A stretch of DNA of 64,000 nt from a virus. Its lineage: Duplodnaviria > Caudoviricetes. A program made the translations under genes and the position numbers. The notes under the pieces are model-generated. The model was given only the letters and a program-made list of their open reading frames with translations. It was not told the DNA's origin and did no database searches. Location of the stretch: IMG/VR virus record IMGVR_UViG_3300002895_000002, positions 96,001-160,000 of that record. One strand, written 5' to 3'. Positions 1,657-47,483 of the stretch are shown in pieces; positions within the stretch are counted from its first letter, which is position 1; every line of letters starts with the position of its first letter.

Positions 1657-2424
1657 TTAGGGCCTCTCTGATTTAGATTTTCTCTTTTCCCAAGAGTTCT
1701 TTATTGCCTGTTTATGAGATTCTGATTTTTTCTTTCCTGTATGAATTTCTGATAATTTTTTCTTTGTTTCTTCGGACATTGGCTTTCGATTTTTTGCTGC
1801 TTTTTTCATTTTTTGTTTCGTTTCTTCGGACACTGGCTTTCGATTTTTTGCTGCTTCTTTCATTTTTTGTTTCGTTTCTTCGGAATGTTCTTTACGGGGT
1901 TTCCCTTTGTGGCTTTCACTTAAATTGTTTTTGTGTTCTTCAGAAAAGAGTCTACCTTTTAATGACTTAGAAATTTTGGCCCGATGTTCACTTGTAAATT
2001 TTCTGTCTTTGAGCGTATTTTTTATTTTTTGTTTTCGCTCATTATCAAGTAAAGAACCCAATAATTTGCCTTTATTTGAATTTCCAATTTTTTGTTTGGT
2101 TTCTTCTGAATGATTGTAGTTTAGGTTCAACCATTTATAATCTTTAGAGGTATATTTTCCATTATTTGACATATAGGAAAATGCTCTAGTCATTTTCGGC
2201 CCCTTGATTTTATGTCCTCTCCATATACGGGCAAGAAGTAGATGAGCAATGAAGTGCTCACGAAGGGGAAGATTTACTCTGTTCCAGGATCCATCAATAT
2301 CATCTATTCCGTCGATTTTTGCAAATGAACGAGGAATGATGTGGTGATCCTCTGTTTGTTTCTTTACTTTTGGGGTGTTACGATTACGTTCGATAATGCG
2401 GTTATAGATTGTTTGATAATCCAT
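1657..2424 (-). CDS. HNH homing endonuclease (MobE-like) with NUMOD3 repeats
   Basis: MDYQTIYNRII..EDHHIIPRS..NRVNLPLREHFIAHLLL; C-terminal HSEETKQK repeats; AT-rich. Confidence 0.9.
   Translation of the reverse strand: MDYQTIYNRIIERNRNTPKVKKQTEDHHIIPRSFAKIDGIDDIDGSWNRVNLPLREHFIAHLLLARIWRGHKIKGPKMTRAFSYMSNNGKYTSKDYKWLNLNYNHSEETKQKIGNSNKGKLLGSLLDNERKQKIKNTLKDRKFTSEHRAKISKSLKGRLFSEEHKNNLSESHKGKPRKEHSEETKQKMKEAAKNRKPVSEETKQKMKKAAKNRKPMSEETKKKLSEIHTGKKKSESHKQAIKNSWEKRKSKSERP
1771..1883. repeat. Tandem ~51-nt repeat encoding NUMOD3 units
   Basis: cttcggaca(t/c)tggctttcgattttttgctgct.. occurs twice in tandem. Confidence 0.8.
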
Positions 2425-2484
2425 ATAAATACCTTTAGAGAAGTTTTTAACTATCAAACTTATTTATCTACATCGGAGAAAATT

Positions 2485-4495: not shown

Positions 4496-5126
4496 CTAAA
4501 TGGATAGTTTACGTTTCAGATGTGCAAGTCTCATTTTTTCTTTGGTTTCAGGTGAATGTGTTTTTCCTTTCATGCCTTTTGGATGCCCATTTTTTAAACT
4601 ATCCTTTATTTTTTGGCAATGCTCTAATGAAAGTTTTTTACCTTTCTTTTCTGAAGGTTTTCCTTTGTTGGCTTTACTCATGATGTCTTTAATTTCATCA
4701 GCACGGTCAGGGCTCATTTCTTCTAAAGTACGTCCTTTACGCGCTGATGGTTTTCCTTTATGCCATTTTCCTCCACGTGCGCTTGATTCTCTAAGTCGCT
4801 CTTTGGTTTTTTCATCGGCAAATTGATACGTATTGCCGCCATTACCACCAGGAACTAAGTTATAGGTGTCTTTTCTGGAAATAAACCATTCATCAACTAT
4901 TTGTTTTTCTATTTCTAACGCATGTTCAGCTGATATACAGTAATGAAGAATAATTCTGACGAAGTTTTCTTTTCCATATTTCTTTACTGCTTTGACTATG
5001 TTTCTACCAGAACCAATATAACCGTCATCAATGCGATTAGTTGACCTTTTTTCCAACATAGATTTTGCTGTTTATTAAATTGGTGGTAAGATAAACAAAA
5101 TGAAATGACTTTTCTTCATGTGCCAT
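4496..5126 (-). pseudogene. GIY-YIG (Seg-like) homing endonuclease with NUMOD3 tail, +1 frameshift
   Basis: ATG 5126 with AGGAG RBS gives MAHEEKSFHFVYLTTNLINSKIYVGK; frame continues RSTNRIDDGYIGSG only if the T6 run 5047-5052 loses one base. Confidence 0.8.
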
Positions 5127-5143
5127 GACGGTCTCCTATAACC

Positions 5144-5228
5144 ATAAATAGAGTTGACAGGGACAACAGTTTCCTAGCTGCTGGTTGTCGTTGGCAGACG
5201 CAACCTTACCCGTTCAATACTATTTATA
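5144..5228. ncRNA. HE-associated three-way-junction element, copy E1
   Basis: ATAAATA..GGAC AACAG[TTTCCTAG]CTGCT GGTTG T CGT[TGGCAG]ACG CAACC TTACC..TATTTAT. Confidence 0.75.
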
Positions 5229-5243
5229 AACTAAGGAAAGAAA

Positions 5244-5972
5244 ATGATAAGTTTACCAAATGAATTACGATTTTCTCCCTACAGTCACAGCAAGATGTCA
5301 CTCTTCTATGAGTGTCCTCACAAGTGGTACCATACATACATCACGAAATCCATGCCGCGTGAACAGAAAGCCGCGTTTGAGAAAGGCGGCTTCATTCACT
5401 ACGCTCTGGATCATTACCCCAACCCCACCCCGAAGAAATACACGTTCAAACTCGCCAGTAATGAAATGCAAGAGGAATGGGTTGATCTTCTCAAAACCAT
5501 CCTTCAGCAGCCTCGAGTCAGAACTATCATCAAGAACAAGATTAACAGTGAATTTACCTGGATCTTGGATCACAACTTCACTCTCGGAACAAACAAGTGG
5601 AAATCGTTAATCTACGGGGTTGTTGACGGAATGACACAGACAGGAAACCGGCTCTGTCTGTACTACTGGAAGACCGGTAAGTCCGATGGCGATAGTGACC
5701 AACTCAAACTCTATGCTCTCTGGGCAATGATTGCTCGTCCCAACCTGAAAGAAGTCCTTTGCAGTTTTGAATATGTGGAGCGAAACACTTTCGATGAATT
5801 CCGGTACGACCAGAGCCAAGTCCCGGAAATGAAAGAATGGCTCTATGAGAAGATATCAAACATAGAAAACGCAACAGAATTTAGTCCAACTCCGTGCAAA
5901 GGATGTTCTTACTGTCCGAAATACACAGTATGTCCGGCACATAAGATCACAATACCTATTTCACGCGGTTGA
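5244..5972 (+). CDS. PD-(D/E)XK RecB/Cas4-like exonuclease with putative Fe-S cysteines
   Basis: SHSKMSLFYECP, KGGFIHYAL, GVVD, WKTG, QLKLYA, PCKGCSYCP..CP. Confidence 0.8.
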   Translation: MISLPNELRFSPYSHSKMSLFYECPHKWYHTYITKSMPREQKAAFEKGGFIHYALDHYPNPTPKKYTFKLASNEMQEEWVDLLKTILQQPRVRTIIKNKINSEFTWILDHNFTLGTNKWKSLIYGVVDGMTQTGNRLCLYYWKTGKSDGDSDQLKLYALWAMIARPNLKEVLCSFEYVERNTFDEFRYDQSQVPEMKEWLYEKISNIENATEFSPTPCKGCSYCPKYTVCPAHKITIPISRG

Positions 5973-6639
5973 TATGTGATTGTCTGATTTTATTTTTGGT
6001 TTCTTCCGATCTGGCTCTACCTAATAATGAGTCCCGAATTTTTTGTTTGGTTTCTTCTGAACATTTTCTTCCAGTGTTCACTTCTAATAATTTTGCTCTA
6101 TGTGATTCTGATATAGGTTTACCTTTTCTTGATTTACTCATATTTTCTTTATGTTCATCAGAAAATATTATACCTTTTCTAGACTCACTTATTTTTCTCT
6201 TGGTTTCTTCTGATCTGGGTTTAGAATTTTTACCTTTCATTGCTTTGCTTCTTTTATCAATATGCTCTTTTGATTGTTTTCTGCCTTTTTGAGATTTGCT
6301 CATTTTTATTATTGTAGCTGACGAATGTTTGTAACCTAACTTTAGCCAAGAATAATCTTTGGATGTATATTTTCCATTATTTGACATATAGGAAAAGGCT
6401 CTAGCCATCTTCGGACCTTTCACTTTATGACCTCGCCATATACGAGCAAGAAGCAGATGGGCAATGAAGTGCTCACGTAAAGGAAGATTAACTCGATTCC
6501 ATCGTCCATCGATATCATCTATTCCATCAAGTTTAGCAAAGGACCTAGGGATGATGTGGTGATTTTCAGTTTGCTTTTTGATCTTGGGGGTGGTACAATT
6601 GCGTTCGATGATACGGTTGTAAATTGATTGATAATCCAT
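5956..6639 (-). CDS. HNH homing endonuclease (MobE-like) with NUMOD3 repeats
   Basis: ENHHIIPRS..REHFIAHLLL; N-terminal ~100 aa nearly identical to the HE at 1657-2424. Confidence 0.9.
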   Translation of the reverse strand: MDYQSIYNRIIERNCTTPKIKKQTENHHIIPRSFAKLDGIDDIDGRWNRVNLPLREHFIAHLLLARIWRGHKVKGPKMARAFSYMSNNGKYTSKDYSWLKLGYKHSSATIIKMSKSQKGRKQSKEHIDKRSKAMKGKNSKPRSEETKRKISESRKGIIFSDEHKENMSKSRKGKPISESHRAKLLEVNTGRKCSEETKQKIRDSLLGRARSEETKNKIRQSHINRVK

Positions 6640-6658
6640 AGACGGTTTCTCCTAACCG

Positions 6659-6746
6659 ATAAATAAGAGTAGAACAGGGACAGCGGTTTCTCCACCGTTG
6701 AGTTTCAGGGCCAACTGAACTCTTACCTGTTTCATGTTTATTTATA
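6659..6746. ncRNA. HE-associated three-way-junction element, copy E2
   Basis: GGAC AGCGG[TTTCTCCA]CCGTT GAGTT T CAG[GGCCAA]CTG AACTC TTACC, flanked by ATAAATA/TATTTAT. Confidence 0.75.
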
Positions 6747-6769
6747 TTTTAACAGAAAGGAATAAGACA

Positions 6770-7147
6770 ATGGCTGAGAAATTTGAAGTAGTAGCTCCGA
6801 ACGGGAAGGATATCACCTTCTCTGACATGAAAGGCCGTAAAACCTATGCTCATGGCGAGCAGATTGAGATGAATTCTTTCGTTGCTATGTTCCCGGGATT
6901 CTTCAAGCGAGTTGAAGATGCAGTCAAGGAAGTAGTTGCTGATGCCAAGGAAGCGGTCGAGGAGATCGTGGAGAAGGTTGAGGAGCAGATCGAGGAGATC
7001 AAGGAAGAGGTGGCTGAGGCCGTCGAGACCGCTGAGGAAGTAGTGGAAGCGGTTGTCGAAGAGGTGAAGGAAGCCGCCGCCGAGATCGAAGAGAAGGTCG
7101 AAGGGATCGTCGAAAAGAAAACGGCTGGTAAGAAGGGCAAAAAATAA
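6770..7147 (+). CDS. Acidic Glu/Val/Ala-repeat hypothetical protein
   Basis: AAGGA RBS; long EEIVEKVEEQIEE low-complexity segment, basic tail. Confidence 0.7.
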   Translation: MAEKFEVVAPNGKDITFSDMKGRKTYAHGEQIEMNSFVAMFPGFFKRVEDAVKEVVADAKEAVEEIVEKVEEQIEEIKEEVAEAVETAEEVVEAVVEEVKEAAAEIEEKVEGIVEKKTAGKKGKK

Positions 7148-7157
7148 GAGGTGACTC

Positions 7158-7922
7158 ATGGCCCTTCCGGTCCGGATCAAGAAAAAGTCAGAGCTGGTTG
7201 ATTACATTCTCCGCAAGCTGGGTTCCCCTGCTGTCAACGTAGAATTAACCAACGAGCACCTCGACGACGCAATTGAGGATACGCTCGAGGAATTCCTTCC
7301 TCGAGCTTATTCCGGCACACTCGAACGGTATGTTCAACTCCAGCTCATAAAGGATCAGCAAGATTACAGACTTCCTGATTCTGTTTTTGCTGTTCTCGGT
7401 GTGTTCAACAACAACATCGGTGACTATACTGTCTCCTCCACTGATATGTTCTCTGCCAACCAGTACATCGCCGCAGACATCTTTGGCGGGAACCTAAAGA
7501 ACGTTGACCTGCTTACCTATACAATGACCCAGCAGTTTATTGAAACGATGGGTTTGATCTTTGGTAAGCGGATCACGTTTGACTTTAACTCCAACACCAG
7601 AATCCTTCACCTTCATGAGCCGCCGAAGAGCAACATATTCACAGTAATGCACTTCTACATGTTCCTTGAGCGTGACGAAGATCCATTAACTCAGGACGAA
7701 CTCACGAACATCTACGATAACAAGTGGGTCAAAAGGATGGCGGTTGAGATGGCTCGGTATCAATGGGGTGTGAACCTCATGAAGTACAATGGCACAGTCC
7801 TTCCGAACGGGATGAATCTCAATGCTGGTGGCATCCTGGATATGGCAGAGAAGAATAAAGAGAAACTGATGGAAGAACTCCATAACGAATGGTCTTTACC
7901 TACCGACTTCTACATCGGGTGA
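7158..7922 (+). CDS. gp13: Neck protein
   Basis: ELVDYILRKLGSPAVNVELTNEHLDDAIEDTLE; QWGVNLMKY..LPNGMNLNA; synteny with gp14/gp15. Confidence 0.9.
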   Translation: MALPVRIKKKSELVDYILRKLGSPAVNVELTNEHLDDAIEDTLEEFLPRAYSGTLERYVQLQLIKDQQDYRLPDSVFAVLGVFNNNIGDYTVSSTDMFSANQYIAADIFGGNLKNVDLLTYTMTQQFIETMGLIFGKRITFDFNSNTRILHLHEPPKSNIFTVMHFYMFLERDEDPLTQDELTNIYDNKWVKRMAVEMARYQWGVNLMKYNGTVLPNGMNLNAGGILDMAEKNKEKLMEELHNEWSLPTDFYIG

Positions 7923-7947
7923 ATGTAGGTTTCCGGTTGATTTTTTA

Positions 7948-7978
7948 CCTTTCTTGATAAATAGTATTACAAGAAAGG
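7948..7978 (+). promoter_or_regulatory. RBS-sequestering hairpin with late promoter
   Basis: cctttcttg/caagaaagg stem around (G)ATAAATA; 3' arm contains the AAGG RBS of the HE. Confidence 0.7.
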
Positions 7979-7985
7979 AAATATC

Positions 7986-9101
7986 ATGCGAGACTTTATT
8001 CTCAGCACTTTTATCACCAAACGAGGAACTTGTGATAGTTCAAAAATAAATCTTCTCTCAAATTATCATGATGACCTAGTTGAACTTGTTCCTGGGTGTG
8101 ATGGTGATGATAAAGAACGATTGTTTTGGTTATCGAGAGGGATAACAGAAGCTCCGGTTTGCAAAACTTGTGGTGGAAAAACAAAGTGGAAAGGGCTCTT
8201 TACTGTTGGAAAGAAGAGCTCTTATCCACTTTTCTGTTCTCCTGCTTGTAGAGCAAAAGATCCAGATGTTACCGAAAAACTCAAGGACTCTCAGTCAAAT
8301 CTCTATCAAGATGAAATGTTAGCAGTTTCTAATAAAGATGAATTGATAGAAATAATCAAACGTCGTTATTATAATGGCAGCAAAACAAATGGCAACTTCC
8401 TTCGTGCTCTCACTCCAAATATAAAAAGTCTACTCAATACTCTTACTCCAAAACTCAAATCTAACGACTACAAAGAAAAGATCTATTGGGTGATGAACGG
8501 ATTTGAAGACTACCCAAATTGGTGTTCGTGTGGCAACCCAATCACTCAGTTTAGAAAAGAATATAAGTGGAAGTTCTGTTCTAACAAATGCAAAGCAAAT
8601 GATCCTGATTTCCAAAAACAAAGAATCGAAACAACAACCTCACGATATGGGACTTCAAATAACAATGCAAAAACCAAACAAACAAACATAAAGAAGTATG
8701 GTGTTGAAAACGTATCACAAATCCCAGCGGTAGCTGATAAGATACTCAAAAATGGACACAGAAAGAAAGTATACACATTTCCTTCTGGAAGAAAAGTATT
8801 CGTTCAAGGATACGAGCCCCAAGCAATCGATGAATTGTTGAAAACATATAATGAAGATGATATTGTTCTTGATCGAAAACAAATACCAACATTTTGGTGG
8901 AACGACAAAACAGGAAAGAAGCACAGATATTTCCCTGATATATTCATCCCAAAAGACAATCTGGTAGTTGAAGTAAAGAGTAAGTGGACCTATGACTCTG
9001 CAAAAGATGTAAATGAGCGAAAGTTCGAACGTGTTCGGGAATCTACCTACAACTTTCGTTTGATGATACTTGATAAATACCAATGGAGGATTCTACCATG
9101 A
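7986..9101 (+). CDS. Putative homing endonuclease (Zn-ribbon repeats plus PD-(D/E)XK/TnsA-like domain)
   Basis: CxxC..CS..C repeats; KYGVENVSQ; RYFPDIFIP..VVEVKSKWT; AT-rich insert between gp13 and gp14. Confidence 0.75.
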   Translation: MRDFILSTFITKRGTCDSSKINLLSNYHDDLVELVPGCDGDDKERLFWLSRGITEAPVCKTCGGKTKWKGLFTVGKKSSYPLFCSPACRAKDPDVTEKLKDSQSNLYQDEMLAVSNKDELIEIIKRRYYNGSKTNGNFLRALTPNIKSLLNTLTPKLKSNDYKEKIYWVMNGFEDYPNWCSCGNPITQFRKEYKWKFCSNKCKANDPDFQKQRIETTTSRYGTSNNNAKTKQTNIKKYGVENVSQIPAVADKILKNGHRKKVYTFPSGRKVFVQGYEPQAIDELLKTYNEDDIVLDRKQIPTFWWNDKTGKKHRYFPDIFIPKDNLVVEVKSKWTYDSAKDVNERKFERVRESTYNFRLMILDKYQWRILP

Positions 9102-9535
9102 ACAAATTCATAGATATGCTCGAAACAGCTCCACAAGTCAATAAGAAACTTGCTGACAGTCAGGCCAAGATTGCTCAGCGAATCCGTATCCAGAAGGAAC
9201 GGGAAGCTCAGATCAAAGCAATGACCATGCAGGAATCTGAGGACTTTGATCAGTATCTTTCGTCCATTGACTCTGTGATCTATGAGAACGCTGCTGTTCA
9301 TCCTGAAGGTGGGGCAGTTCGGGATGGTGGTCGTTTTGTTCTGAGTCATCATGTCATAAAGACGGATCCCTATCTCTTCGGCATGGACACGGACGAGCAC
9401 AAGCGATTCATTTCGAAGGCAGGGACCAAAGGCGATGCAAAAGTAACAATGCATGCTCCTGGGTTCTACGATCTGTATTTTGACGATGGTGACATTGTTC
9501 CAGCAATATCCGGTCATTTCGTTAAGCCGGCATAA
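9098..9535 (+). CDS. Hypothetical protein
   Basis: GGAGG RBS; late promoter GATAAATA at 9072 inside the HE 3' end. Confidence 0.7.
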   Translation: MNKFIDMLETAPQVNKKLADSQAKIAQRIRIQKEREAQIKAMTMQESEDFDQYLSSIDSVIYENAAVHPEGGAVRDGGRFVLSHHVIKTDPYLFGMDTDEHKRFISKAGTKGDAKVTMHAPGFYDLYFDDGDIVPAISGHFVKPA

Positions 9536-9556
9536 TATACCAAGGAGAAATCAAAC

Positions 9557-10123
9557 ATGAGTAAAATGGATCTGTATCTCAAAGGTCTCGATGGTCTTGC
9601 TACAGTGATCGGTGCTGCCCTGGTTGTTGAGAGCAAAGAAGAAGTAAAAGAAGAGCCGACAGTCATCGAAGAGAGTGTTGAGGAAGAATACCTCTGTGAA
9701 GGCATCAAATCTTCCTCACTCAAGAAGGGTGATCGGGTGATGATGAAGGACAAGTATGAAGAGATTCCGGTTGAAATTCTCGGGTTCTCTCATCACTCCG
9801 CTAAGTATGGTGATCATAGCAAATATGACGCCAAACACGACCCGGAAGGCAAGTTCAAAGGCAAGGACTTTGAATCCCATAAGGAAATGTTGGATCACTA
9901 CGGAGTAAAGAGCCTCAAGGACCTCGAGCAACACGAAGACATCAAGAAAGCGGAGTATGGTCATCACCCATACATGAAACTCAAAGCCCATGAGAACGGA
10001 AACTCGTACGACTTCAACGCATACCCGTATAAGGGTCGGTGGAATGTTGGTACTAGCGCTGACAGCATTTCCTTCCGTAAGATGACCCCGGAAGAGGAAG
10101 AGAAGCATTTCGGTAGTAAGTAA
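9557..10123 (+). CDS. Hypothetical protein
   Basis: AAGGAG RBS; 188 aa; acidic linker then charged domain. Confidence 0.7.
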   Translation: MSKMDLYLKGLDGLATVIGAALVVESKEEVKEEPTVIEESVEEEYLCEGIKSSSLKKGDRVMMKDKYEEIPVEILGFSHHSAKYGDHSKYDAKHDPEGKFKGKDFESHKEMLDHYGVKSLKDLEQHEDIKKAEYGHHPYMKLKAHENGNSYDFNAYPYKGRWNVGTSADSISFRKMTPEEEEKHFGSK

Positions 10124-10138
10124 CCTATACCGCTTAGA

Positions 10139-10852
10139 TCATTTCCAGAAAAGAAACGCGACTAGTCCAATAAGGGCGGATTCACGTTGTTCCGCCCTTC
10201 GTTGTTTTATTATTTTGGACATGTATGCTTTGTGTTCATCTGAGTGGATGTGTTTACCCTTATTTGCTTCACTTATTTTTCGACAATGCTCCTCAGACCT
10301 CTGGGGTTTTGGTACTCCCCTCAATGAATCGGAAATCTTACGTTTGGTTTCGTTGGATAATGTCTTACCAGTTTGTGCTCTGGAATTTTTTGCTCTCTCT
10401 TCCACACTCACAACTCGACCAGATAGAGATTTACTTCTTTTCTCTCGAGTTTCGTTGCTTATAGATGTTGCTGCTATCCTTTTCTTGGCTCTGGTTTCTT
10501 CTGATGGGTTACGATTAGCATCTCCTATCTTCTGACGGTGTTCTTTAGAAGGGGACCTTCCTTTTCTATTGGGTGGTCTATATCCACCAGGCGTTAGGTT
10601 ATAAACATCTGTTCTGGAAAGAAATGATCTATCCACAATCCAAGACTCAATCTCATAAGCCTCTTCCTCGTTTCTGGCTAGATGAAGGATGTGTCGTTGG
10701 AAATTATTCTTTCCATACTTTTTGATGGCTTTGAGGATGTTATCTCCCGAACCCAGATATGAATCCTTGAGTCGATTAGCGGAATGGACGCCGACGTAGA
10801 TTTTGCCGTTGATAAGATTGTGAGTGAGGTAGATAAAGTGATACAGTTTCAT
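10139..10852 (-). CDS. GIY-YIG (Seg-like) homing endonuclease with NUMOD3 repeats
   Basis: YHFIYLTHNLINGKIYVGVH..YLGSG..KKYGKNNF..YNL; GGAG RBS before ATG 10852. Confidence 0.9.
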   Translation of the reverse strand: MKLYHFIYLTHNLINGKIYVGVHSANRLKDSYLGSGDNILKAIKKYGKNNFQRHILHLARNEEEAYEIESWIVDRSFLSRTDVYNLTPGGYRPPNRKGRSPSKEHRQKIGDANRNPSEETRAKKRIAATSISNETREKRSKSLSGRVVSVEERAKNSRAQTGKTLSNETKRKISDSLRGVPKPQRSEEHCRKISEANKGKHIHSDEHKAYMSKIIKQRRAEQRESALIGLVAFLFWK

Positions 10853-10862
10853 GGTGACTCCG

Positions 10863-10949
10863 ATAAATAGATGTGACAGGGACATCGGGAGTGACTCCCT
10901 TCCGTTGAGTCTCAGCTGCAACTGGACTCTTACCTGTCTATTATTTATA
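10863..10949. ncRNA. HE-associated three-way-junction element, copy E3
   Basis: GGAC ATCGG[GAGTGACTCCCTT]CCGTT GAGTC T CAG[CTGCAA]CTG GACTC TTACC. Confidence 0.75.
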
Positions 10950-10964
10950 ATACCTGGATAGAAA

Positions 10965-11639
10965 ATGCCAATACCAACATTCAACAGACAGACGACGGTT
11001 TTTAAGTTCAATGAACGTTATGCACCAGACCAAGGTGAAGCTCATTTATATCATACAATCTTGTGCGAGGCCGTTTGGAAGCACGGAACTGATGTTATTT
11101 TCATTCCCCGGGTCATCTCGGGGATTGAGAAAATCTTTGGAGAGTACCTTGCTCCTGTTCTGGAGAAAGGACATCCGTTCCGGATGTTTGTTGATGAGGT
11201 AGAGAACTGGAACGGGACTGGTGACATGTATTCCCGCTTTGGTCTCAAGGTTCAAGATTCGATGACCTGCTGGCTCCCCATCGATAGCTTCCGGGAACAG
11301 AACCCAGATGGTAGTGATGGGGAGTTGCTTTTCCCTCAGCACAATGACCTCTTATACCACGTGCCGTCCAAGAAGCTCTTTGAGATCACTCACGTGGAAA
11401 ATGAGAGTCACCCAAGTTTCTATCTGTTTGGAAACCTCCGTTGCTATAAGTTTACCACCACTCTGTACTCTTACAACCACGAAGAAGTGGTTGACGATGC
11501 ATCGCTCCCTGAAGGGCTGTTTGAGCTTAGCCAGCAAGCTGAGCCCCAAGATTTTGATCGAAACAATCAGCGGTATCAGGATAGAACAGTAACAGAGCAA
11601 ACGTTGGACAAAACTGAGAAAAATCCAATTTTTGAGTAG
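10965..11639 (+). CDS. gp14: Neck protein
   Basis: EAVWKHGTDVIFIPR..IFGE; SRFGL; DLLYHVPSKKLFEITHVE..FYLFG; synteny. Confidence 0.9.
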   Translation: MPIPTFNRQTTVFKFNERYAPDQGEAHLYHTILCEAVWKHGTDVIFIPRVISGIEKIFGEYLAPVLEKGHPFRMFVDEVENWNGTGDMYSRFGLKVQDSMTCWLPIDSFREQNPDGSDGELLFPQHNDLLYHVPSKKLFEITHVENESHPSFYLFGNLRCYKFTTTLYSYNHEEVVDDASLPEGLFELSQQAEPQDFDRNNQRYQDRTVTEQTLDKTEKNPIFE

Positions 11640-12259
11640 CTATTTCTTATATTTGCAGTTATCACCATGCCATCTCTTTATCAATGAGGGGATGGCTTCT
11701 TTTTTGCAATAAGGACATATAGCATTTGGTCTATTTCTTATAGACTCACTCATCTTCTGTTTGCTTTCTTCAGTGTGGGTCCACCCAGTATAAGGTGTTC
11801 GTTGTTTTGCTTTTTCGCTTATTATCTTTTTTGATTCATCCGAATGTTTCCACCCAGTATAAGGTGTTCGTTGTTTTGCTTTCTCACTCATTATCTTCTT
11901 TGAGTCGACTGAGTGTTTTTGCCCCTTTCTTCTCAATGCTCTTTTTTCTACATGTTCTTTTGATTGTTTTTCCCTTTTTGATTTGGTGGTCGACGACCAC
12001 CCGGGACAAGATTATAGGTGTCTTTTCTCTTTATAAAAGAATTGTCAACCATCCAAGATTCAAACTCGTAAGCTTCCTCTTCATTCCTACCGATAAAAAG
12101 AATGGTTCTTTTGAATTGATCTTTTCCATACTTTTTGATCGCAGGAAGTAATAAAAACCCAGATCCCAAGTATGAATCTTCAAACGAATCAGACGAATGA
12201 ACACCAACATAAATCATATTGTTTATAAGGTTCTGAGTAAGATAGACGAAGTGATACAC
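11640..12259 (-). pseudogene. GIY-YIG homing endonuclease with NUMOD3 repeats, -1 frameshift
   Basis: GTG 12259 with AGGAG RBS; GIY-YIG domain to 11948; joins the NUMOD3 ORF (to 11640) if the T5 run 11967-11971 gains one base. Confidence 0.8.
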
Positions 12260-12276
12260 GAATGTCTCCTGATGAC

Positions 12277-12358
12277 ATAAATAGGATTGTGGGGACAGCA
12301 GTTTCCTGGACTGTTGGTGTTCGTTGCCCGACGACACCTTACCCACAATCCTATTTAT
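12277..12358. ncRNA. HE-associated three-way-junction element, copy E4
   Basis: Perfect 17-bp outer stem ataaataggattgtggg/cccacaatcctatttat; AGCAG[TTTCCTGGA]CTGTT GGTGT T CGT[TGCCCG]ACG ACACC TTA. Confidence 0.75.
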
Positions 12359-12374
12359 CAAAATGGATGTCAAC

Positions 12375-13190
12375 ATGGTTTATTTCGCTCATAACAATCT
12401 AACTAGACGGGTTTTGGTATCTTTTCTGGATTTCTTATCAAGATTTACCATTGAAAAATATCAATATAACCAAACTACGGGAGAGTTTGAATCCAGAAAG
12501 TTCGTGAGAGTTCCTATACAATATGCGAGCAAGGAAGAATGGTTGCAGGTTCTCGATTCTACGACAGGAAGGAGACAATTCAATCCTGCTCTCATGAATC
12601 CAATAGAATCTGAATGGATTCTCCCTAGATTGTCTGCCAACATTGTGAATATGACGTATGATTCAAATAGAAAAGTTTCATCGTTGAACCGAGTTCCTGA
12701 CATTGGAAGAAATCCAGACTCAACGATGAAAAATTACTACATGCCGGTTCCTTATTCGCTGGATCTTGATGTATATGCTGTTGCCAAGAGCATGGATGAC
12801 ATCCTCCAGATAACTGAGCAGATGGTTCCATTCTTCAGTCCGTCTATGAGCATGGATGTTAAGCTGTTCCCTGATGCGCCAGCAGAGAGCATTCCCGTTG
12901 TTCTCCAAAGCACAGTTCCTGATTACCCGGACGAGATTGGTTCTGAGGATGAGATCCGACTCTATCAAATGACCTTTGGGTTCCAGATCCGCATGAACTA
13001 TTACCTGCCGAGAAGGATTGACCCAACTGTCAAGAGCGTTGTTGTTGACTACGAGCTTGAGGATGCAGAACGGTTTGCTCGGTATGTTCAGACTGCTCGA
13101 GATCTATACCCAGTAGGTGAGTATAAGGACCGTCCTAATCTTGATCTCAATCCTGTTGATGTCTCTGAGGATTTTCCTGGGATACCTTGA
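12375..13190 (+). CDS. gp15: Tail sheath stabiliser/terminator
   Basis: YFAHNNLTRRVLVSF; RVPIQYASKEEW; ILPRLS; MPVPYSL; QITEQMVPFFSP. Confidence 0.9.
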   Translation: MVYFAHNNLTRRVLVSFLDFLSRFTIEKYQYNQTTGEFESRKFVRVPIQYASKEEWLQVLDSTTGRRQFNPALMNPIESEWILPRLSANIVNMTYDSNRKVSSLNRVPDIGRNPDSTMKNYYMPVPYSLDLDVYAVAKSMDDILQITEQMVPFFSPSMSMDVKLFPDAPAESIPVVLQSTVPDYPDEIGSEDEIRLYQMTFGFQIRMNYYLPRRIDPTVKSVVVDYELEDAERFARYVQTARDLYPVGEYKDRPNLDLNPVDVSEDFPGIP

Positions 13191-15555: not shown

Positions 15556-17904
15556 ATGGCATTTTCGCTCAGCCCTTCAGTTGATGTGAGAGAGTTCGAT
15601 CTGTCCTTGACGATTCCGAACCTCCCTTCCGCTAAGACCGGCATGGTCCTGCCGGCCGACAAGGGTCCTTGCCTCGCCATCACTGCAATCACCAGTGAAG
15701 CCGACCTTGTCAACAAGTTCGGCAAGCCGACCAAGGACAATTACAAAGAGTGGTTCAACGCATGGAACTTCCTTCAGTATGCATCGAGCCTCTACGTTGC
15801 TCGCCCGCTGCCGCAGGTTGGTGGTGTTCCTGTTGAGAACGCAGCTCTGAAGTTCAACGCTCCAGGCGGGGTTTTTGATTCCGTCAACAATGAGAGCCTC
15901 GGCGATTTCTACAACGAGGAGCTGGCTTTTGGACAGATTGAGAACCAGCATACCATGGTCGCTCTTGACGACCTGATCTTCGTCAATCGTGCTGTTACGT
16001 CAACACAAGACGCTGCTGTTGCTACTTGTTCCGACCCAGCATACTGGAACAGCCCAATCGCTAATGATGTTGCCGCTAAAGGCAAGATTGTTTTCACTGC
16101 CGGCGTTGGTGATTGTGTTGTTGATGCAACCCTGTTGGGTGAAGGTACTCCGAGCAACACCAGCCCGATCGCCACTCGCCCTGTTTATCCGGCTGGCTCT
16201 ACCAAGATCGGAGTGGAAGACGCTTCATTCTTTGCTGTAGGTGACACCTTCATTGTTGGCAACAAGAACATCGTTGTCAAAGATGTTGATGTAGTGAACA
16301 ACATCCTGACAATCTCTCCGGGTCTGCCTGTTGCTGTCGCTCAACTCAAGAAGCTCTCTATCTTCTTTGACTTTACTGCCGGACCGATCCCGGTTGGTGC
16401 AACCACCATTCCGTGTCTTTCAACATCCGGTCTGGTAAACGGAGATAAGGTTGTTGTGTATGATGACAACACCGACCAGAAGATGGAACTGACCGTTGCT
16501 GGATTGACTCCAACTTCGTTCAGTTGTGCTGCTACTACGTTCACCATTGAAGAAGATACTGCCGGATACGTTGTTGGGTCTGACTCATACCTTCGTTCAT
16601 ACGATGCTCTGTATGATTCCGCTCTGGTCAAGACTGTTCAAGCTGGTGGTTCGACTGTCAGCACCTACATCATCGGAACTGGTTCGGTTGTAACGGAAGA
16701 ACTTGTTACCTTCAACGAACTGTTCGAGTTTGAGCCGGACTGGTCCAATGACGAGTTTGTTGTTGTTGTTCTTCAGAAGTCCAATAACAAGTTCGGTCTT
16801 GCTGAGACCTTCACTGGTTCCTACAATGAGACCGCACGTGACTTCAGTGGCCGCAACATGTTCATGGAGTCCGTGATCAACAGCCAGTCCAAGCTCGTGT
16901 ACTGTCTGGTCAAAGAGAACGGCAACAAGGTTGATACTGCTCCTCAGCCGCTGCAGAAGTTTGCTTCTTCCGCTCTTACTGTTGGCGATCCAGTCGGCAC
17001 CAACGACATCATCTTCGCAGAGGACCTCTTCAGAGATCCGGAAGGCTTCGATATCAACATCCTGATTGCCAGCAAAGGCAACCTTAACGGAATGTCCGAG
17101 ATTGCCGAAACCAGGAAAGACTGTGTTGCTATCGTATGTCCGTATCAAGAGACGGACTACATTGGCAAGTCTGCAACTGACGCCTGTGCCAAACTGATTG
17201 AAGAGTTTGGTGTCAAGTCCACAATGACTGGCTCCAGGGACTTCAGCAGATTCGGTACTTACTCCGCAGTATACGGCAACATGAAATACCAGTATGACAA
17301 GTTCAACGACGTCAACCGCTGGGTAGGTGTTGCTGGTGATATCGCTGGTCTGTATGCTGCGATGGATGCAGACAGGGATCCGTGGTGGGCTCCGGCAGGT
17401 CTCGAGCGTGGTAAGATCAAAAACGCTATCAAGCTCGTCATCAACCCGAACAAGCAAAACAGAGACGACCTGTATGTCAACAGCATCAACCCGATCCTGG
17501 GCATCCCGGGTGAAGGCAACGCTGTTGTATGGGGTCAGAAGACTGCAACTGCCAAGCCGAGTGCATTTGATCGCGTCAACGTTCGTCGACTCCTAATAAC
17601 GATCGAGAAGGCTGTTGCAACTGCATCCCGCTACGGTCTCTTCGAGTTCAACGATGCATTTACCCGGTCCAGGCTGTTTGCTCTCATCGACCCGTATCTC
17701 CGCACCGTTCAGGCTCGCCGGGGTGTTTATGACTTCCTGGTTGTCTGTGATGAAAGCAACAACCCGGCAACTGTGATTGACGCTAACGCGTTGGTTATCG
17801 ACGTTTACCTGAAGCCGACCAAGGTAGCAGAATTCATCCAGATAAATATGAAAGTAACAAGGACGGATGCTAACTTCCAAGAAATTGTCGGTCAAGCCCC
17901 ATAA
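15556..17904 (+). CDS. gp18: Tail sheath protein with enlarged insertion region
   Basis: MAFSLSPSVDVREFD; WWAPAGLERG; PNKQNRDDLY; AFDRVNVRRL; YLKPTKVAEFI. Confidence 0.95.
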   Translation: MAFSLSPSVDVREFDLSLTIPNLPSAKTGMVLPADKGPCLAITAITSEADLVNKFGKPTKDNYKEWFNAWNFLQYASSLYVARPLPQVGGVPVENAALKFNAPGGVFDSVNNESLGDFYNEELAFGQIENQHTMVALDDLIFVNRAVTSTQDAAVATCSDPAYWNSPIANDVAAKGKIVFTAGVGDCVVDATLLGEGTPSNTSPIATRPVYPAGSTKIGVEDASFFAVGDTFIVGNKNIVVKDVDVVNNILTISPGLPVAVAQLKKLSIFFDFTAGPIPVGATTIPCLSTSGLVNGDKVVVYDDNTDQKMELTVAGLTPTSFSCAATTFTIEEDTAGYVVGSDSYLRSYDALYDSALVKTVQAGGSTVSTYIIGTGSVVTEELVTFNELFEFEPDWSNDEFVVVVLQKSNNKFGLAETFTGSYNETARDFSGRNMFMESVINSQSKLVYCLVKENGNKVDTAPQPLQKFASSALTVGDPVGTNDIIFAEDLFRDPEGFDINILIASKGNLNGMSEIAETRKDCVAIVCPYQETDYIGKSATDACAKLIEEFGVKSTMTGSRDFSRFGTYSAVYGNMKYQYDKFNDVNRWVGVAGDIAGLYAAMDADRDPWWAPAGLERGKIKNAIKLVINPNKQNRDDLYVNSINPILGIPGEGNAVVWGQKTATAKPSAFDRVNVRRLLITIEKAVATASRYGLFEFNDAFTRSRLFALIDPYLRTVQARRGVYDFLVVCDESNNPATVIDANALVIDVYLKPTKVAEFIQINMKVTRTDANFQEIVGQAP

Positions 17905-24127: not shown

Positions 24128-24778
24128 ATGAGACAACCACACAGTGAAGAAACAAAAGAAAAAATAAGACAATCCCTTCTTGGTAGAAAACATTCAGAAG
24201 AAACTAAGGAGAAAATCGGAAAATCTTCTCAGGGTAGAATTCATTCAGAAGAAACTAAAGAGAAGATGAGAAGCCATAAACGATCTGAGGAAACGAAAGA
24301 GAAAATCAGACAATCTCGTTTAGGAAAACCACTACCCGAAGAAACTAAGGAAAAATTACGGGGTCAAAAAAGATCTGAGGAAACGAAAGAGAAAATCAGA
24401 CAAGCAAGACTGGGTACCAAAAGTTCTGACGAAACCAAAGCAAAAATTAGTGCAGCTACAAGTGGATCCAAAAATCCAATGTATGGAAAAGTAGGTGCAA
24501 TGAAAGGTAAGCCTAGTGCAAAAGGCTTTCTCGGAAAGAAACATACAAAAGAAACAAAACAACAAATGTCAAAGAATAATAAAGGTAAGATATTATCACC
24601 GGAAACAAGAGCAAAAATTCAATCATCTACTATTCATCATATGAGTCAACTTACTGATGATGAATTCAAGAAGTATATCCCCAAACCCAAATCAGAAAAT
24701 GATGCCATTGAATTAATCAATCAACCACAGGATATTGAATTATGGGATGACATTTGCTCCCGTATTTTCAACTTATAA
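24128..24778 (+). CDS. NUMOD3-repeat-only protein, no nuclease domain
   Basis: About eight (H/R)SEETKEKI-type repeats from residue 5; no GIY-YIG, HNH or PD-(D/E)XK motif. Confidence 0.8.
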   Translation: MRQPHSEETKEKIRQSLLGRKHSEETKEKIGKSSQGRIHSEETKEKMRSHKRSEETKEKIRQSRLGKPLPEETKEKLRGQKRSEETKEKIRQARLGTKSSDETKAKISAATSGSKNPMYGKVGAMKGKPSAKGFLGKKHTKETKQQMSKNNKGKILSPETRAKIQSSTIHHMSQLTDDEFKKYIPKPKSENDAIELINQPQDIELWDDICSRIFNL

Positions 24779-46013: not shown

Positions 46014-46988
46014 ATGGCTATCATCATTGACAGCTCACACCTACTCGCCCGGTGCGTGCATGGCGGAAGAAAAGAGATTCTTGAGCGACCGGAGTATGCA
46101 GCTCACATGCTCTTCAACTCCATTCTCATGAACTCCCGGAAATTTGGAGCGTCAAAAGAGAATCCGGTTATTATGGCCCTTGACACCAAGCCATACTGGC
46201 GGTCTAAGTATTATGTCGAAAATAAGGATCAGTTCGTTGAATACCGGACCAACCCTAAGTATCAAGCATACAAAGGTCAGCGGGAAAAGGACGATACCTT
46301 ACCATGGGAAAAAATCTACGAGGTGGCTAATGCCTGCTACGCTGCGATTGAACAATATTCCGATTTCCATGTTGTTGGAGTCATTGGAGCAGAGGCCGAC
46401 GATATTATCGCTGTCGGAGCAAATCACTTCTCAGAAAAAGGACAACCTGTCACTGTCGTATCTTCCGATAAGGACTTCCAACAACTCCACAGACCAGGAA
46501 GAGGAGTCCAAGTCTGGGATCCAATCAAAAAAACCTTCAGACCAGACATTGACCCGGAGTATTACAAAAAGTTACACGCGATCTCTGGAGATCCCGGAGA
46601 TAACATTCTCCCTATCAAAAGAGGAGCAGGTCCAAATACAAAAACAGCTGAACGATATGCTCGAGACCTCGATACTTACCTTGCTACAGACGCAGAGCTC
46701 AGAGATCGTTACAAATTCAACAGAACACTCACAGACTTCGATTATATTCCCGTTGAAGTATCCAGTCGCATAGTTGAGGCGATTGAGAACCATACCTACT
46801 CATTCTCTGCAATGGACTTGATGAAAGTTTTCATTAAATACAGGCTCAATGCAATTGGTGAGAGAGTTCAGGAGTTTCGCCTTCCTGAGAAGACACAAGT
46901 CAAAACCAGCACCAGTGCGAAGGTATACAAGGAAGCCGCAAAGCAACAGCAGGTACTCAACAACACATTGGAGGATTTTTTCGGCTAA
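46014..46988 (+). CDS. rnh: T4-type RNase H / 5'-3' flap exonuclease
   Basis: IIIDSSHL; YWRS; YKGQR; AEADDII; SSDKDFQQL; GDPGDNI. Confidence 0.92.
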   Translation: MAIIIDSSHLLARCVHGGRKEILERPEYAAHMLFNSILMNSRKFGASKENPVIMALDTKPYWRSKYYVENKDQFVEYRTNPKYQAYKGQREKDDTLPWEKIYEVANACYAAIEQYSDFHVVGVIGAEADDIIAVGANHFSEKGQPVTVVSSDKDFQQLHRPGRGVQVWDPIKKTFRPDIDPEYYKKLHAISGDPGDNILPIKRGAGPNTKTAERYARDLDTYLATDAELRDRYKFNRTLTDFDYIPVEVSSRIVEAIENHTYSFSAMDLMKVFIKYRLNAIGERVQEFRLPEKTQVKTSTSAKVYKEAAKQQQVLNNTLEDFFG

Positions 46989-47167
46989 CAACGACCTAGA
47001 ATCCAACCTTCAGGTTGAGTGTTTTCATTATATAACCCACATTCTTTGTTATATGGATTATTATACCAACGTTTTCCTGAAGGTATTCCTTTGTTATGTG
47101 CTGGTCTTCCTTTTCGTGTATTTTGATTCTGTTCGATGATACGGTCGTAGATAGATTGATAATCCAT
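46985..47167 (-). pseudogene. Internally deleted HNH homing endonuclease (60 aa mini-element)
   Basis: MDYQSIYDRIIEQN (matches the MobE-like HEs) fused directly to a NKG..WYNN..PEGWILGR tail; no HNH motif. Confidence 0.8.
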
Positions 47168-47178
47168 GACAGTTCCCC

Positions 47179-47269
47179 TATAAATAGATGTGACAGGGAC
47201 AGCAGGGAAGTTCCCCTCTCCGTTGGTTGTGGTGGTCAGACCCAACCTTACCTGTTCCCTTTTATTTAT
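47179..47269. ncRNA. HE-associated three-way-junction element, copy E5
   Basis: GGAC AGCAG[GGAAGTTCCCCTCT]CCGTT GGTTG T GGT[GGTCAG]ACC CAACC TTACC. Confidence 0.75.
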
Positions 47270-47297
47270 CAAATCCCATGAAAGGTATAGAAATAAT

Positions 47298-47483
47298 ATG
47301 AATGTGATGTGTAACGCAGATCCCAAGACTAGACCTAGACATTGTTGTCAACGCACCAACCTTTGTTGTGTTTTCTGTCTCAAGATTAAAGACTGTTTTG
47401 CTGAAGCAGAAGCATGTAAGATTCAGAAACCATGTGACGCGGATTGTAACACTGTTGATGATCCGTGTCCGTTCGCAATCTGA
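47298..47483 (+). CDS. Small Cys-rich protein (61 aa)
   Basis: HCCQRTNLCCVFC..DC..CKIQKPCDADC..PCP. Confidence 0.55.
   Translation: MNVMCNADPKTRPRHCCQRTNLCCVFCLKIKDCFAEAEACKIQKPCDADCNTVDDPCPFAI

Follow-up and report, generated by a model that had tools for sequence, protein, structure and literature searches.

A c4-like RNA scaffold with a retargetable anti-RBS loop may restrain homing endonucleases in a T4-like phage

Free-standing homing endonucleases (HEs) are dangerous passengers, and in phage T4 each is held back by its own ad hoc hairpin or operator. A 213-kb T4-like phage genome, which includes a 64-kb stretch (the window) described earlier from sequence alone, raises the question whether such nucleases can be controlled by a common device, and the new data point to one conserved RNA scaffold that is retargeted via a single loop change. 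Specifically, we assign a probability of about 60% to the reading that this element is a c4-like antisense riboregulator acting on HE translation; synthesis of the two RNAs, their pairing and the resulting repression are steps that we infer.

The sequence-only reading had described five elements in the window, together with their matched words and flanking arms, and all were recovered at the positions it gave (Table 1). The complete genome holds 16 copies, on the + strand without exception, and each adjoins the start of a minus-strand HE gene in head-to-head orientation; three + strand HE genes of the same genome stand without an element. Approximately 75 distinct relatives occur in further uncultivated phage contigs. 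The neighboring genes are nucleases of at least five unrelated families with differing DNA-binding domains (HNH, GIY-YIG, LAGLIDADG, Vsr-like and TnpB-type), and replication genes are served as well, across very different phages. The earlier suggestion of one scaffold shared by GIY-YIG and HNH nucleases thus extends to a broader set on comparative evidence.

Table 1 Elements, matched words, nuclease genes and + strand neighbors in the 64-kb window
Feature	Position	Strand	Remarks
Element E1	5144-5227	+	91.3 bits; folds as three-way junction
E1 left candidate late-promoter core	5144-5150		ATAAATA; followed by P1
E1 J1/2	5162-5164		GAC
E1 P2	5165-5182		
E1 P3	5183-5205		
E1 J3/1	5206-5208		UUA; followed by P1'
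E1 right arm	5221-5228		TATAAATA read on minus strand
E1 P2 apex word	5169-5176	+	GTTTCCTA; putative anti-RBS of + RNA; 7/8 identical to 5131-5138, lone difference gives G.U (+ loop/minus mRNA)
HE1 RBS region	5131-5138	-	TAGGAGAC on minus strand; 3 nt upstream of ATG at 5127
HE1 gene	4496-5127	-	GIY-YIG; frame broken after 29 codons at A6 run (+ strand T6, 5047-5052), resuming in ORF 4496-5059
+ gene after E1	5244-5972	+	exonuclease-like; E1 would be its 5'UTR
Element E2	6659-6745	+	81.1 bits
E2 P2 apex word	6684-6693	+	CGGTTTCTCC; 10/10 to HE2 RBS region 6643-6652
E2 right arm	6739-6746		TATAAATA read on minus strand
HE2 gene	5956-6639	-	intact; Mob-like HNH/NUMOD3 endonuclease, 227 aa
+ gene after E2	6770-7147	+	
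Element E3	10863-10948	+	82.6 bits
E3 word	10891-10898	+	GTGACTCC; loop and 3' half of apical stem; 8/8 to HE3 RBS region 10854-10861
E3 right arm	10942-10949		TATAAATA read on minus strand
HE3 gene	10139-10852	-	GIY-YIG endonuclease, 237 aa; ATG at 10852
+ gene after E3	10965-11639	+	head closure
Element E4	12277-12358	+	80.2 bits
E4 word	12301-12308	+	GTTTCCTG; 7/8 to HE4 RBS region GTCTCCTG, 12264-12271; G.U-compatible
E4 right arm	12352-12359		GATAAATA read on minus strand
HE4 gene	11640-12259	-	GIY-YIG; GTG start at 12259; interrupted (103-aa ORF 11951-12259, then separate ORF 11640-11936)
+ gene after E4	12363-13190	+	tail sheath stabilizer
Element E5	47180-47269	+	88.7 bits
E5 word	47209-47217	+	AGTTCCCCT; 9/9 to RBS region 47171-47179
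E5 left arm	from 47179		TATAAATA
E5 right arm	47263-47270		GATAAATA on minus strand
HE5	46988-47167	-	60-aa N-terminal stub of Mob-like HNH gene
+ gene after E5	47298-47483	+	

The + strands of E1 to E5 each fold as a three-way junction (z-scores -1.8 to -6.9), and alifold on 12 genome copies yields 17 pairs, 12 of them compensatory. When 61 distinct members of the family are aligned, pairing is seen in 93.6% of cells and both sides change in 18 of 19 pairs; the covariation score is 0.739 (shuffles, 0.18; slid partners, no more than 0.11). These values bear out the proposed junction with covarying stems. The core consists of an invariant GAC, a near-invariant UUA, closing G-C pairs and a wobble in P2 (G.U/A.C, 35 vs 14), although the search patterns account in part for the conservation of GGGACA and CTTACC in the IMG/VR set. 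The P3 loop is semi-constant among the genome copies; the bulged T and 6-nt loop that had been called invariant are constant among close copies but vary beyond those. The minus strand is likewise able to fold as a three-way junction. The + strand is nevertheless taken as the folded one because a P1 position shows G.U 20 times and A.C once on that strand, because the junction letters read in the + orientation in members with opposite-strand and same-strand targets alike, and because of the exposure of the matched word.

That word constitutes the central evidence. In 30 of 59 cognate pairs the P2 apex copies the 6-10 nt directly 5' of the HE start codon, as opposed to 3% of non-cognate pairs (permutation p <= 5e-5), and a shared same-strand word of at least 8 nt is found in 27/59 cognate vs 1.2% of non-cognate pairs. 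With G.U allowed, at least 8 contiguous base pairs can form in 34 of 44 cognate pairs, compared with 9.5% of non-cognate ones. The observed sum was reached by 0/20,000 permutations for the own genome (n=16) and for the IMG/VR contigs (n=43), each taken alone, whereas the reverse complement, P3 and the right flank, used as controls, gave flat results. The gap from the end of the matched word to the start codon is 0-7 nt. Both words change together in close homologues, as in AGTTCCCCT vs GTTCCCTT, in L007 and L133 (TTCACCTTT vs TTTACCTTT) and in a third case (TTGGACTC vs TTTGACTC), and the match is kept for words that do not resemble a Shine-Dalgarno (SD) sequence, e.g., TCCAAATC and ACCGAT. In the predicted folds, the matched word is 74% unpaired in the + RNA (46% overall) and 48% unpaired, and hence not exposed, in the minus RNA. 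Seven of the single differences place a C in the RBS and a T in the loop, which gives G.U; the orientation in which mismatches had been read as wobbles (+ loop, minus mRNA) accordingly holds for E1 and E4 and beyond, though this C-to-T bias could instead stem from selection for a strong SD. The claim that each P2 loop repeats the RBS of its own HE stands as regards the match but not as regards a pure loop, since the words of E3 and E5 lie partly in a stem. Comparative evidence as such supports a structured + strand RNA in which a retargetable loop complements the ribosome-binding region of the HE mRNA.

Other phages offer a second view of the scaffold. There it lies upstream of its target gene, on the same strand, and covariation of loop and RBS is seen in this cis mode as well: at its SD, the same-strand gene carries a 5-8 nt complement of the P3 loop, this word differs per member, and the complementarity extends to the RBS hairpin of the target (in L027 it is the P2 loop, not P3, that is complementary to the SD word). 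In cis, the scaffold would sit in the leader of the target gene, with the P3 loop kissing a small hairpin that holds the SD. The cis-type targets include non-HE genes, namely DUF1376, a replisome organiser and a ParB-methylase. The proposed tie to HE genes, with the target on the opposite strand, thus applies to 16/16 copies here, but elsewhere the arrangement can be same-strand, in cis and with some non-HE targets.

These same-strand members also bear on an explanation in which the HE mRNA itself is functional, its leader forming the reverse-complement junction and its P2 loop mimicking the RBS as a decoy or standby site for ribosomes or an RBS-binding repressor. The two words are indeed identical on the minus strand, as expected of a mimic, and that strand can adopt the junction. 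Yet the same-strand members show complementarity rather than identity, and same-strand identity of loops to the right flank is flat; the junction letters follow the + orientation regardless of gene strand, the P1 wobbles favor the + strand, non-SD-like words are matched too, and the minus RNA shows no preferential exposure of the copies. This explanation is therefore unlikely.

How could a + strand RNA reach an RBS outside its own junction? The ATAAATA and TATTTAT arms occur where the outer stem had been proposed, but are better read as two putative T4-type late promoters in face-to-face orientation. TATAAATA occurs 27 times on the + strand, where 7 are expected, often directly 5' of an SD and ATG; on the minus strand, element right arms account for 11 of its 14 occurrences. 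Trans-type members have a right arm in 29/30 cases and cis-type members in 1/9, and matches to the late-promoter consensus flank the element on both strands with a strong strand bias, marking candidate promoters. Promoters, RNA ends and relative RNA levels of both strands are deduced here from sequence. Specifically, a late promoter (N-ATAAATA) would fire rightwards to yield the + strand RNA, the first ~70 nt of which would fold into P1, J1/2 GAC, P2 and P3 stacked without a linker, and J3/1 UUA, and the P2 apex would display 8-10 nt complementary to the ribosome-binding region of the HE mRNA (about -1 to -14). In turn, the HE mRNA would be made leftwards from the second late promoter (TATAAATA, minus strand) at the far end of the element, and with promoters at opposite ends the two RNAs would overlap head-on. 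Plain antisense overlap cannot cover the RBS because the + promoter sits between the HE RBS and the junction; the anti-RBS copy in the P2 loop may cover it instead. Pairing of loop and RBS, perhaps starting as a kissing contact, would then block 30S binding and keep HE translation low, although this match is possibly not the main contact, as the two RNAs are fully complementary over ~70 nt anyway. The nuclease silencing and the antitoxin-like role named in the sequence-only reading stay at the level of prediction.

Among known systems, the c4 antisense RNA of phages P1 and P7 (Rfam C4, RF01695) comes closest. c4 is a trans-acting immunity factor that RNase P excises from a longer transcript, whereas the 5' end of the element would be set by its promoter. 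In P1 c4 as described in PMC8198154 (citing Citron and Schuster 1990), a basal stem carries two adjacent hairpins, the second loop of which pairs to the icd SD ~45 nt downstream; the breadth of the C4 family is covered in PMC2864571. When P1 c4 was examined directly, its loop UUUCACUAA was found to pair with GUUAGUGAGG at the icd SD. Both RNAs measure ~77-86 nt and consist of a basal stem bearing two directly adjacent hairpins, and the cis-type members share with c4 a hairpin loop complementary to an SD 20-45 nt downstream in the same transcript, with loop and target co-varying between phages (through the P3 loop in the cis-type). The window elements have the same topology, but their target lies on the opposite strand; together with convergent promoters, use of the P2 loop and HE targets, this arrangement is without c4 counterpart. 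The junctions differ as well: the element has GAC and UUA, whereas c4 lacks J1/2 and has a 7-nt J3/1 that is antisense in its own right (segment a') and pairs with another target site. For the element a single contact was found, J3/1 being only UUA and neither flank holding a second word complementary to P2 or P3. The C4 model (cut-off 45 bits) finds P1 c4 at 68.8 bits but nothing in the 213-kb genome at E <= 10, the element model R1 has no match in P1 at E <= 10, and no Rfam family overlaps the elements at E <= 10 (around E1 and E2) or E <= 5. Consequently, the notion of a wholly new RNA system gives way to that of a separate family sharing the architecture and logic of c4, and these comparisons argue for a new family of c4-like riboregulators, in which the head-on trans arrangement linked to HE genes is likewise new. 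By analogy, the element most likely limits HE nuclease output as c4 RNA does for another gene of P1. The c4 principle, known from P1-like temperate phages, would thereby cover mobile nuclease genes as well as lytic T4-like and jumbo phages, with an added arrangement: an essential neighbor's leader, transcribed from the opposite strand, would act as the regulator.

A further comparison is with cis-antisense control of mobile-element nucleases, as by RNA-OUT and RNA-IN of IS10. These RNAs arise from promoters that face each other, their 5' ends overlap, and pairing begins between a stem-loop's loop and the RBS of the transposase mRNA. The element would resemble this type in its putative facing promoters, predicted 5' overlap and stem-loop RNA directed against the RBS of its own nuclease, but RNA-OUT overlaps the RBS directly, whereas here the overlap would stop short and a separate loop copy would act as anti-RBS. 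Unlike in IS10, furthermore, many unrelated genes share the scaffold, and the antisense RNA of this genome would double as the leader of a neighboring gene. The T-even HE genes I-TevI, I-TevII, I-TevIII, segB and mobE of Aeh1 carry RBS-sequestering hairpins with an embedded late promoter (PMC2988022). Common to both is an RNA structure at the RBS that restrains (here, by prediction) HE translation, with the TATAAATA late promoter just upstream. The T-even hairpins are, however, idiosyncratic and local, pair the RBS in cis and are escaped by late transcripts, while the element has a conserved, covarying junction that would be retained in the late transcript, leaves the RBS outside and, in the window, has its complementary loop on the RNA of the other strand. 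An I-TevI-type leader hairpin was rejected on similar grounds: the RBS lies 0-9 nt outside the element, the minus promoter would lie upstream of the whole junction, and, in the predicted minus RNA, pairing of the RBS word does not exceed the average.

The repeated word might instead be an operator for a protein, either for HE autorepression, as seen for I-TevI with an operator that covers its own late promoter (PMC2988022), or as a CsrA-type double-GGA site, GGA being present in many words on the minus strand. This is highly improbable. The neighbors belong to too many nuclease families with differing DNA-binding domains, and the identity is copy-dependent and 8-10 nt long, where two GGA motifs, in loop and SD, would suffice for CsrA/RsmA; several words, e.g., GAGGTGAAA and ATCGGT, lack GGA, and the same-strand members are complementary, which a protein site does not need. 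A guide RNA was likewise rejected, as the loop matches the element's own neighbor and no remote target, and the Rfam models of HEARO, IscB-TnpB guide RNAs and known self-cleaving ribozymes found nothing in the 64-kb window (gathering threshold) or around E1/E2 (E <= 10). The alternatives listed in the sequence-only reading (guide RNA, ribozyme, CsrA operator, DNA operator) are thus unsupported.

Simple antisense action does not explain the conserved junction letters, the P2 wobble and the semi-constant P3 loop. It is conceivable, if doubtful, that the junction is a portable, programmable anti-RBS module whose core recruits a partner, such as a phage or host protein or the 30S subunit, and whose loop/RBS pairs form specificity classes. 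If so, the module would travel with at least five nuclease families and be retargeted by rewriting one loop, each loop/RBS pair being distinct as in the c4 immunity types, and a phage could silence its own endonucleases, possibly also same-word ones of co-infecting relatives, each independently. The 16 natural loop/RBS pairs of one genome constitute a ready orthogonality set for the specificity of short kissing contacts, and such pairs could become designable translational repressors. Rather unlikely is a sensor, i.e., a riboswitch-like or protein-binding leader for which the kissing contact is only the expression platform, so that translation of HE and replication genes tracks a ligand, a phage or host protein, temperature or infection stage. 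The invariant GAC, near-invariant UUA, isosteric G.U/A.C wobble and closing G-C pairs do resemble a binding pocket, and the element would lie at the extreme 5' end of transcripts from differing promoter types; however, no ligand or partner can be named, the target genes have no common metabolic theme, the trans arrangement is unusual among riboswitches, and core conservation stems partly from the search patterns.

The c4-like reading also has to accommodate the + strand neighbors. The genes downstream of the elements on that strand are essential late genes, which the left promoter may also feed, thereby lowering the cost of the inserted cassette. Moreover, the HE genes are broken in 4/16 cases while the adjoining elements are intact, from which it follows that the element must serve more than HE control. 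Could it serve mainly the + neighbor, as a portable late-promoter and 5'-stabilizer cassette that restores expression after HE insertion, the loop/RBS likeness being a by-product of copying? T4 HE cassettes are known to bring promoters for their neighbors (PMC2988022), and the intact elements beside dead genes fit as well, but this leaves unexplained the concerted loop/RBS changes, the cis mode and members without a + gene on the right flank, and is decidedly unlikely. A minus-strand ORF forms the right flank in L020, L100, L113, L054 and L029, and the + RNA there is thus predicted to be a dedicated antisense transcript. In line with a role for the + neighbor, two different GIY-YIG genes share the same element and downstream gene (genome 50924 and 64380).

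The complete IMG/VR virus record, of which the window forms bases 96001-160000, is 213,116 bp long and belongs to a distant T4-like myovirus, whose tail sheath shares 37-41% identity with its counterparts in Vibrio phage Va1, Pelagibacter phage HTVC008M and Ochrobactrum phage OC; the neighbour genes (terminase, head-closure, adaptor, sheath-stabiliser) lie nearly all on the + strand. A covariance model (R1), built from alignment A2 of the genome copies, detects 16 copies of the element in this genome, scoring 43-92 bits and all on the + strand; the positions given in the sequence-only reading for its five elements, and for the two copies of every matched word, are exact. Specifically, the start codon of a minus-strand homing endonuclease (HE) gene adjoins the element in 16/16 copies; 11 of these genes encode Mob-like HNH proteins (M[DN]YQ[SA]IY...) and five encode GIY-YIG proteins, in line with the claim that a single scaffold serves unrelated nuclease families. 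The element is present at 16 of the 17 minus-strand HE-like genes and at none of the three on the + strand. Within the genome, it goes only with HE genes oriented against their neighbours.

The main finding concerns the apex of stem P2, which in each of the 16 genome copies duplicates a + strand stretch of 5-10 nt situated 0-7 nt from the start codon of the HE gene. The suggested check, whether this loop follows the adjacent ribosome-binding site (RBS) in phage metagenomes, comes out positively in IMG/VR contigs: a pattern scan that left flank and apex unconstrained, followed by the model, recovered about 45 further distinct members from AT-rich contigs, some of them jumbo phages of 359-465 kb. 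Loop and RBS region share a word of at least 7 nt in 30 of 59 cognate pairs compared with 3.1% of non-cognate ones, and one of at least 8 nt in 27 of 59 compared with 1.2%; when G.U counts as a pair, 34/44 cognate pairs form 8 or more contiguous base pairs versus 9.5% of non-cognate ones. In the genome set and the contig set, taken separately, the observed sum exceeds that of every one of 20,000 permutations, and the controls (reverse complement of P2, P3, right flank) are flat. Between homologous neighbours the words change in concert (AGTTCCCCT versus GTTCCCTT; TTGGACTC versus TTTGACTC; TTCACCTTT versus TTTACCTTT, the last pair found by a whole-record model search with no pattern used). The rule is also kept for words that do not resemble a Shine-Dalgarno (SD) sequence (TCCAAATC, ACCGAT), which argues against the repeat being two ribosome-binding sites and in favour of putative RNA-RNA pairing. 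Seven single differences place C in the RBS and T in the loop, giving G.U in the duplex of + loop and minus mRNA, the orientation in which mismatches were said to become wobbles, and the three incompatible differences all sit at alignment edges; the C-to-T bias could instead reflect selection for a strong SD.

Each + strand copy is predicted to fold into the same three-way junction, in the order P1, J1/2 (GAC), P2, P3 with no gap after P2, J3/1 (UUA) and P1'. The first pair of P2 is A-U and the next is a conserved wobble, and P3 consists of ~5 bp, often a bulged U, ~3 further bp and a loop that in the genome copies is semi-constant and often YGCC-rich. Among 61 distinct members, standard pairs occupy 93.6% of cells and 18 of 19 pairs change on both sides, counts that are biased towards structure because the alignment was fitted to the model. 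The covariation score of 0.739 compares with 0.18 for shuffles (0/500 reach 0.739) and at most 0.11 when partners are slid by 1-3 columns, in agreement with the covarying junction originally described; with 12 copies aligned by MAFFT alone, alifold already finds 12 compensatory pairs. At the P2 wobble position 35 members have G.U and 14 have A.C, and the isostericity of these pairs suggests that its geometry matters. A tertiary contact between the P2 and P3 loops was rejected (cognate mean 2.75, non-cognate 2.80), and match statistics of P3 against 150 nt of either flank are flat, so that no partner of the genome copies' P3 loops was detected. Pairing of either loop with the RBS of the adjacent + strand gene in the window was likewise rejected, with 6 nt seen by eye at E1 only and flat statistics, as was a small ORF starting from the loop SD, since no conserved start or frame was found on reading the E1-E5 sequences. 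A direct repeat arising as a target-site duplication or transposon was rejected on the grounds that it would split the conserved junction.

The ATAAATA/TATTTAT arms, previously read as an outer stem, instead correspond to a late promoter of the T4 type. The + strand has 27 occurrences of TATAAATA versus ~7 expected, often 10-30 nt ahead of an SD and ATG, and the minus strand has 14, of which 11 are right arms of elements; outside elements, ATAAATA counts are 68 for the + strand and 7 for the minus strand. On the basis of this consensus and established T4 biology (PMC2988022), two facing late promoters are predicted to flank the element. From these, a + RNA would start at P1 and the minus-strand HE mRNA at P1', with an overlap of ~70 nt. 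A search of public RNA runs returned a single weak candidate only, and that a DNA run. Sigma-70-like promoters directly downstream of three elements (table) would give some + strand neighbours an early promoter in addition to the late one.

Coordinates of individual features (L-numbers are loci with elements)
Feature	Coordinates	Strand	Remark
HE-like gene	window 7986-9101	+	without element
HE-like gene	window 24128-24778	+	without element
HE-like gene	genome 211949-212680	+	without element; plain TATAAATA and 25-nt leader
Mob-like HNH gene (MDYQ...)	window 1657-2457	minus	without element
TATAAATA	window 2424-2431	+	directly overlaps start codon of the Mob-like HNH gene at 1657-2457; RBS absent between
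Orphan element 3' half, GTTACCTGTTCTATTTATA	genome 202490-202545		outside window; reads TATAAATA on minus strand; junction absent
Element, L119	L119:1485-1572 (genome 50924)		GIY-YIG neighbour Seg-like, 307 aa
Element, L120	L120:1485-1573 (genome 64380)		GIY-YIG neighbour LEM-3-like, 259 aa
A6 run in HE1	window 5047-5052		GGA AAA AAG on coding strand
ARAGORN tRNA-Asn call	window 15803-15872		within tail-sheath ORF (15556-17904); probably a false positive
TTGACA-N17-TATAAT, L123	genome 193334-193380		directly downstream of element
TTGACA-N17-TATAAT, L127	genome 206484-206530		directly downstream of element
TTGACA-N17-TATAAT, L125	genome 61402-61460		directly downstream of element
Element, L062	L062:2941-3026		head-to-head with TnpB
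TnpB (OrfB_IS605 / Cas12f-like TNB)	L062:1722-2930	minus (locus orientation)

Cis-type relatives give further insight into the acting strand. In these members the opposite-strand gene is absent and the target sits downstream on the element's own strand, and the right-hand promoter arm is present in 1 of 9, compared with 29 of 30 trans-type members, whose target is on the opposite strand. Scans without the ATAAATA requirement yield many more cis-type members, the model confirming 14 of 19 loci; among them are several GC-rich ones, and some carry sigma-70-type promoters predicted to be positioned for an RNA start at P1. Trans members use P2 and cis members P3, whose loop complements, and does not repeat, a word at the SD (one locus, L027, uses the P2 loop). 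The cis loop/target pairs all differ (for example CCUUCA/UGAAGG, CCUUGA/UCAAGG, CGUCAC/GUGACG, CCACAC/GUGUGG, CCCUGAA/UUCAGGG, CCCUUAU/AUAAGGG, CUACUU/AAGUAG), and the target word is usually the loop of a small hairpin with the SD in its 3' arm, so that the contact is predicted to be a kissing loop. Both modes have the unpaired junction letters in the same orientation, which points to a + sense RNA as the conserved unit, with loops that would address an RBS in cis or in trans. One P1 position agrees with this strand (G.U 20 versus A.C 1) and is the only one at which the test is decisive, counts elsewhere being 17 versus 15 and the P2 wobble symmetric; the matched word, modelled as 74% unpaired in the + RNA versus 48% in the minus RNA, also agrees. 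Several contigs have a minus-strand ORF as the right flank, and there the + RNA would be a dedicated antisense transcript rather than a leader for a + strand gene.

An antisense RNA acting on the RBS is the best-supported mechanism, to which we assign a probability of roughly 0.6. The closest known system is the c4 antisense RNA of phages P1 and P7. P1 c4, located by its Rfam model and then folded, has a long basal stem carrying two hairpins side by side; the second hairpin pairs through its loop with the icd SD, ~45 nt downstream, while the strand of the 3' junction pairs with a second site. Cis-type members share this architecture and logic, whereas the junction differs and one contact was found in the element compared with two in P1 c4; since, moreover, neither the C4 model on this genome nor R1 on P1 gives a match at E <= 10, the two are separate families. 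T-even HE leader hairpins (PMC2988022) and IS10 RNA-OUT resemble the element in function but are not related to it. Rfam searches at gathering and permissive thresholds gave no family that overlaps a member in the window or the GC-rich relatives, and the element's description was not found in the literature searched. Whole-genome model searches of eight cultured phages (Ochrobactrum OC, Vibrio Va1 and SRILMA, HTVC008M, Vibrio 2.275.O, Campylobacter F348, Lak-B5, Lak-A1) gave 0 matches, blastn of E5 against phage records returned nothing relevant, and a search via the tail-sheath-stabiliser gene for an HE-less allele found no relatives. The original observation is confirmed and extended by the 16 genome copies, the IMG/VR relatives and the cis-type members, and its claim to a new RNA system stands for the family and the arrangement, the kind being that of known c4-like riboregulators.

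By Pfam, trans-type neighbours comprise NUMOD3 (15 members), three GIY-YIG families (13), HNH (5), DUF7487 (5), DUF4379 (2), DUF559/Vsr (1) and TnpB (1). The TnpB member shows a weak loop/RBS match of 5 nt. Cis targets include HNH+NUMOD3, LAGLIDADG, GIY-YIG and DUF723/DUF4379/CapR proteins; others are DUF1376 proteins, a replisome-organiser-like protein and a ParB-N/DNA-methylase fusion. The scaffold is thus strongly tied to HE genes in T4-type phages, yet not exclusive to them.

Four HE genes are dead or truncated while their elements and matched words are still intact, which suggests a second role as promoter and leader of an essential downstream gene. The frame of HE1, the GIY-YIG gene beside E1, breaks at a run of six A, where five would restore it; possible explanations are a true pseudogene, a sequencing error and a slippage site. 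The Mob-like HNH gene without an element looks like a copy with junction and RBS deleted, and the orphan 3' half is probably a remnant. Lastly, P2 and P3 are identical between the L119 and L120 elements, the 59-aa CxxC genes downstream of them are homologous and their GIY-YIG neighbours differ, which suggests that RBS and junction are exchanged as one module with breakpoints near the start codon.
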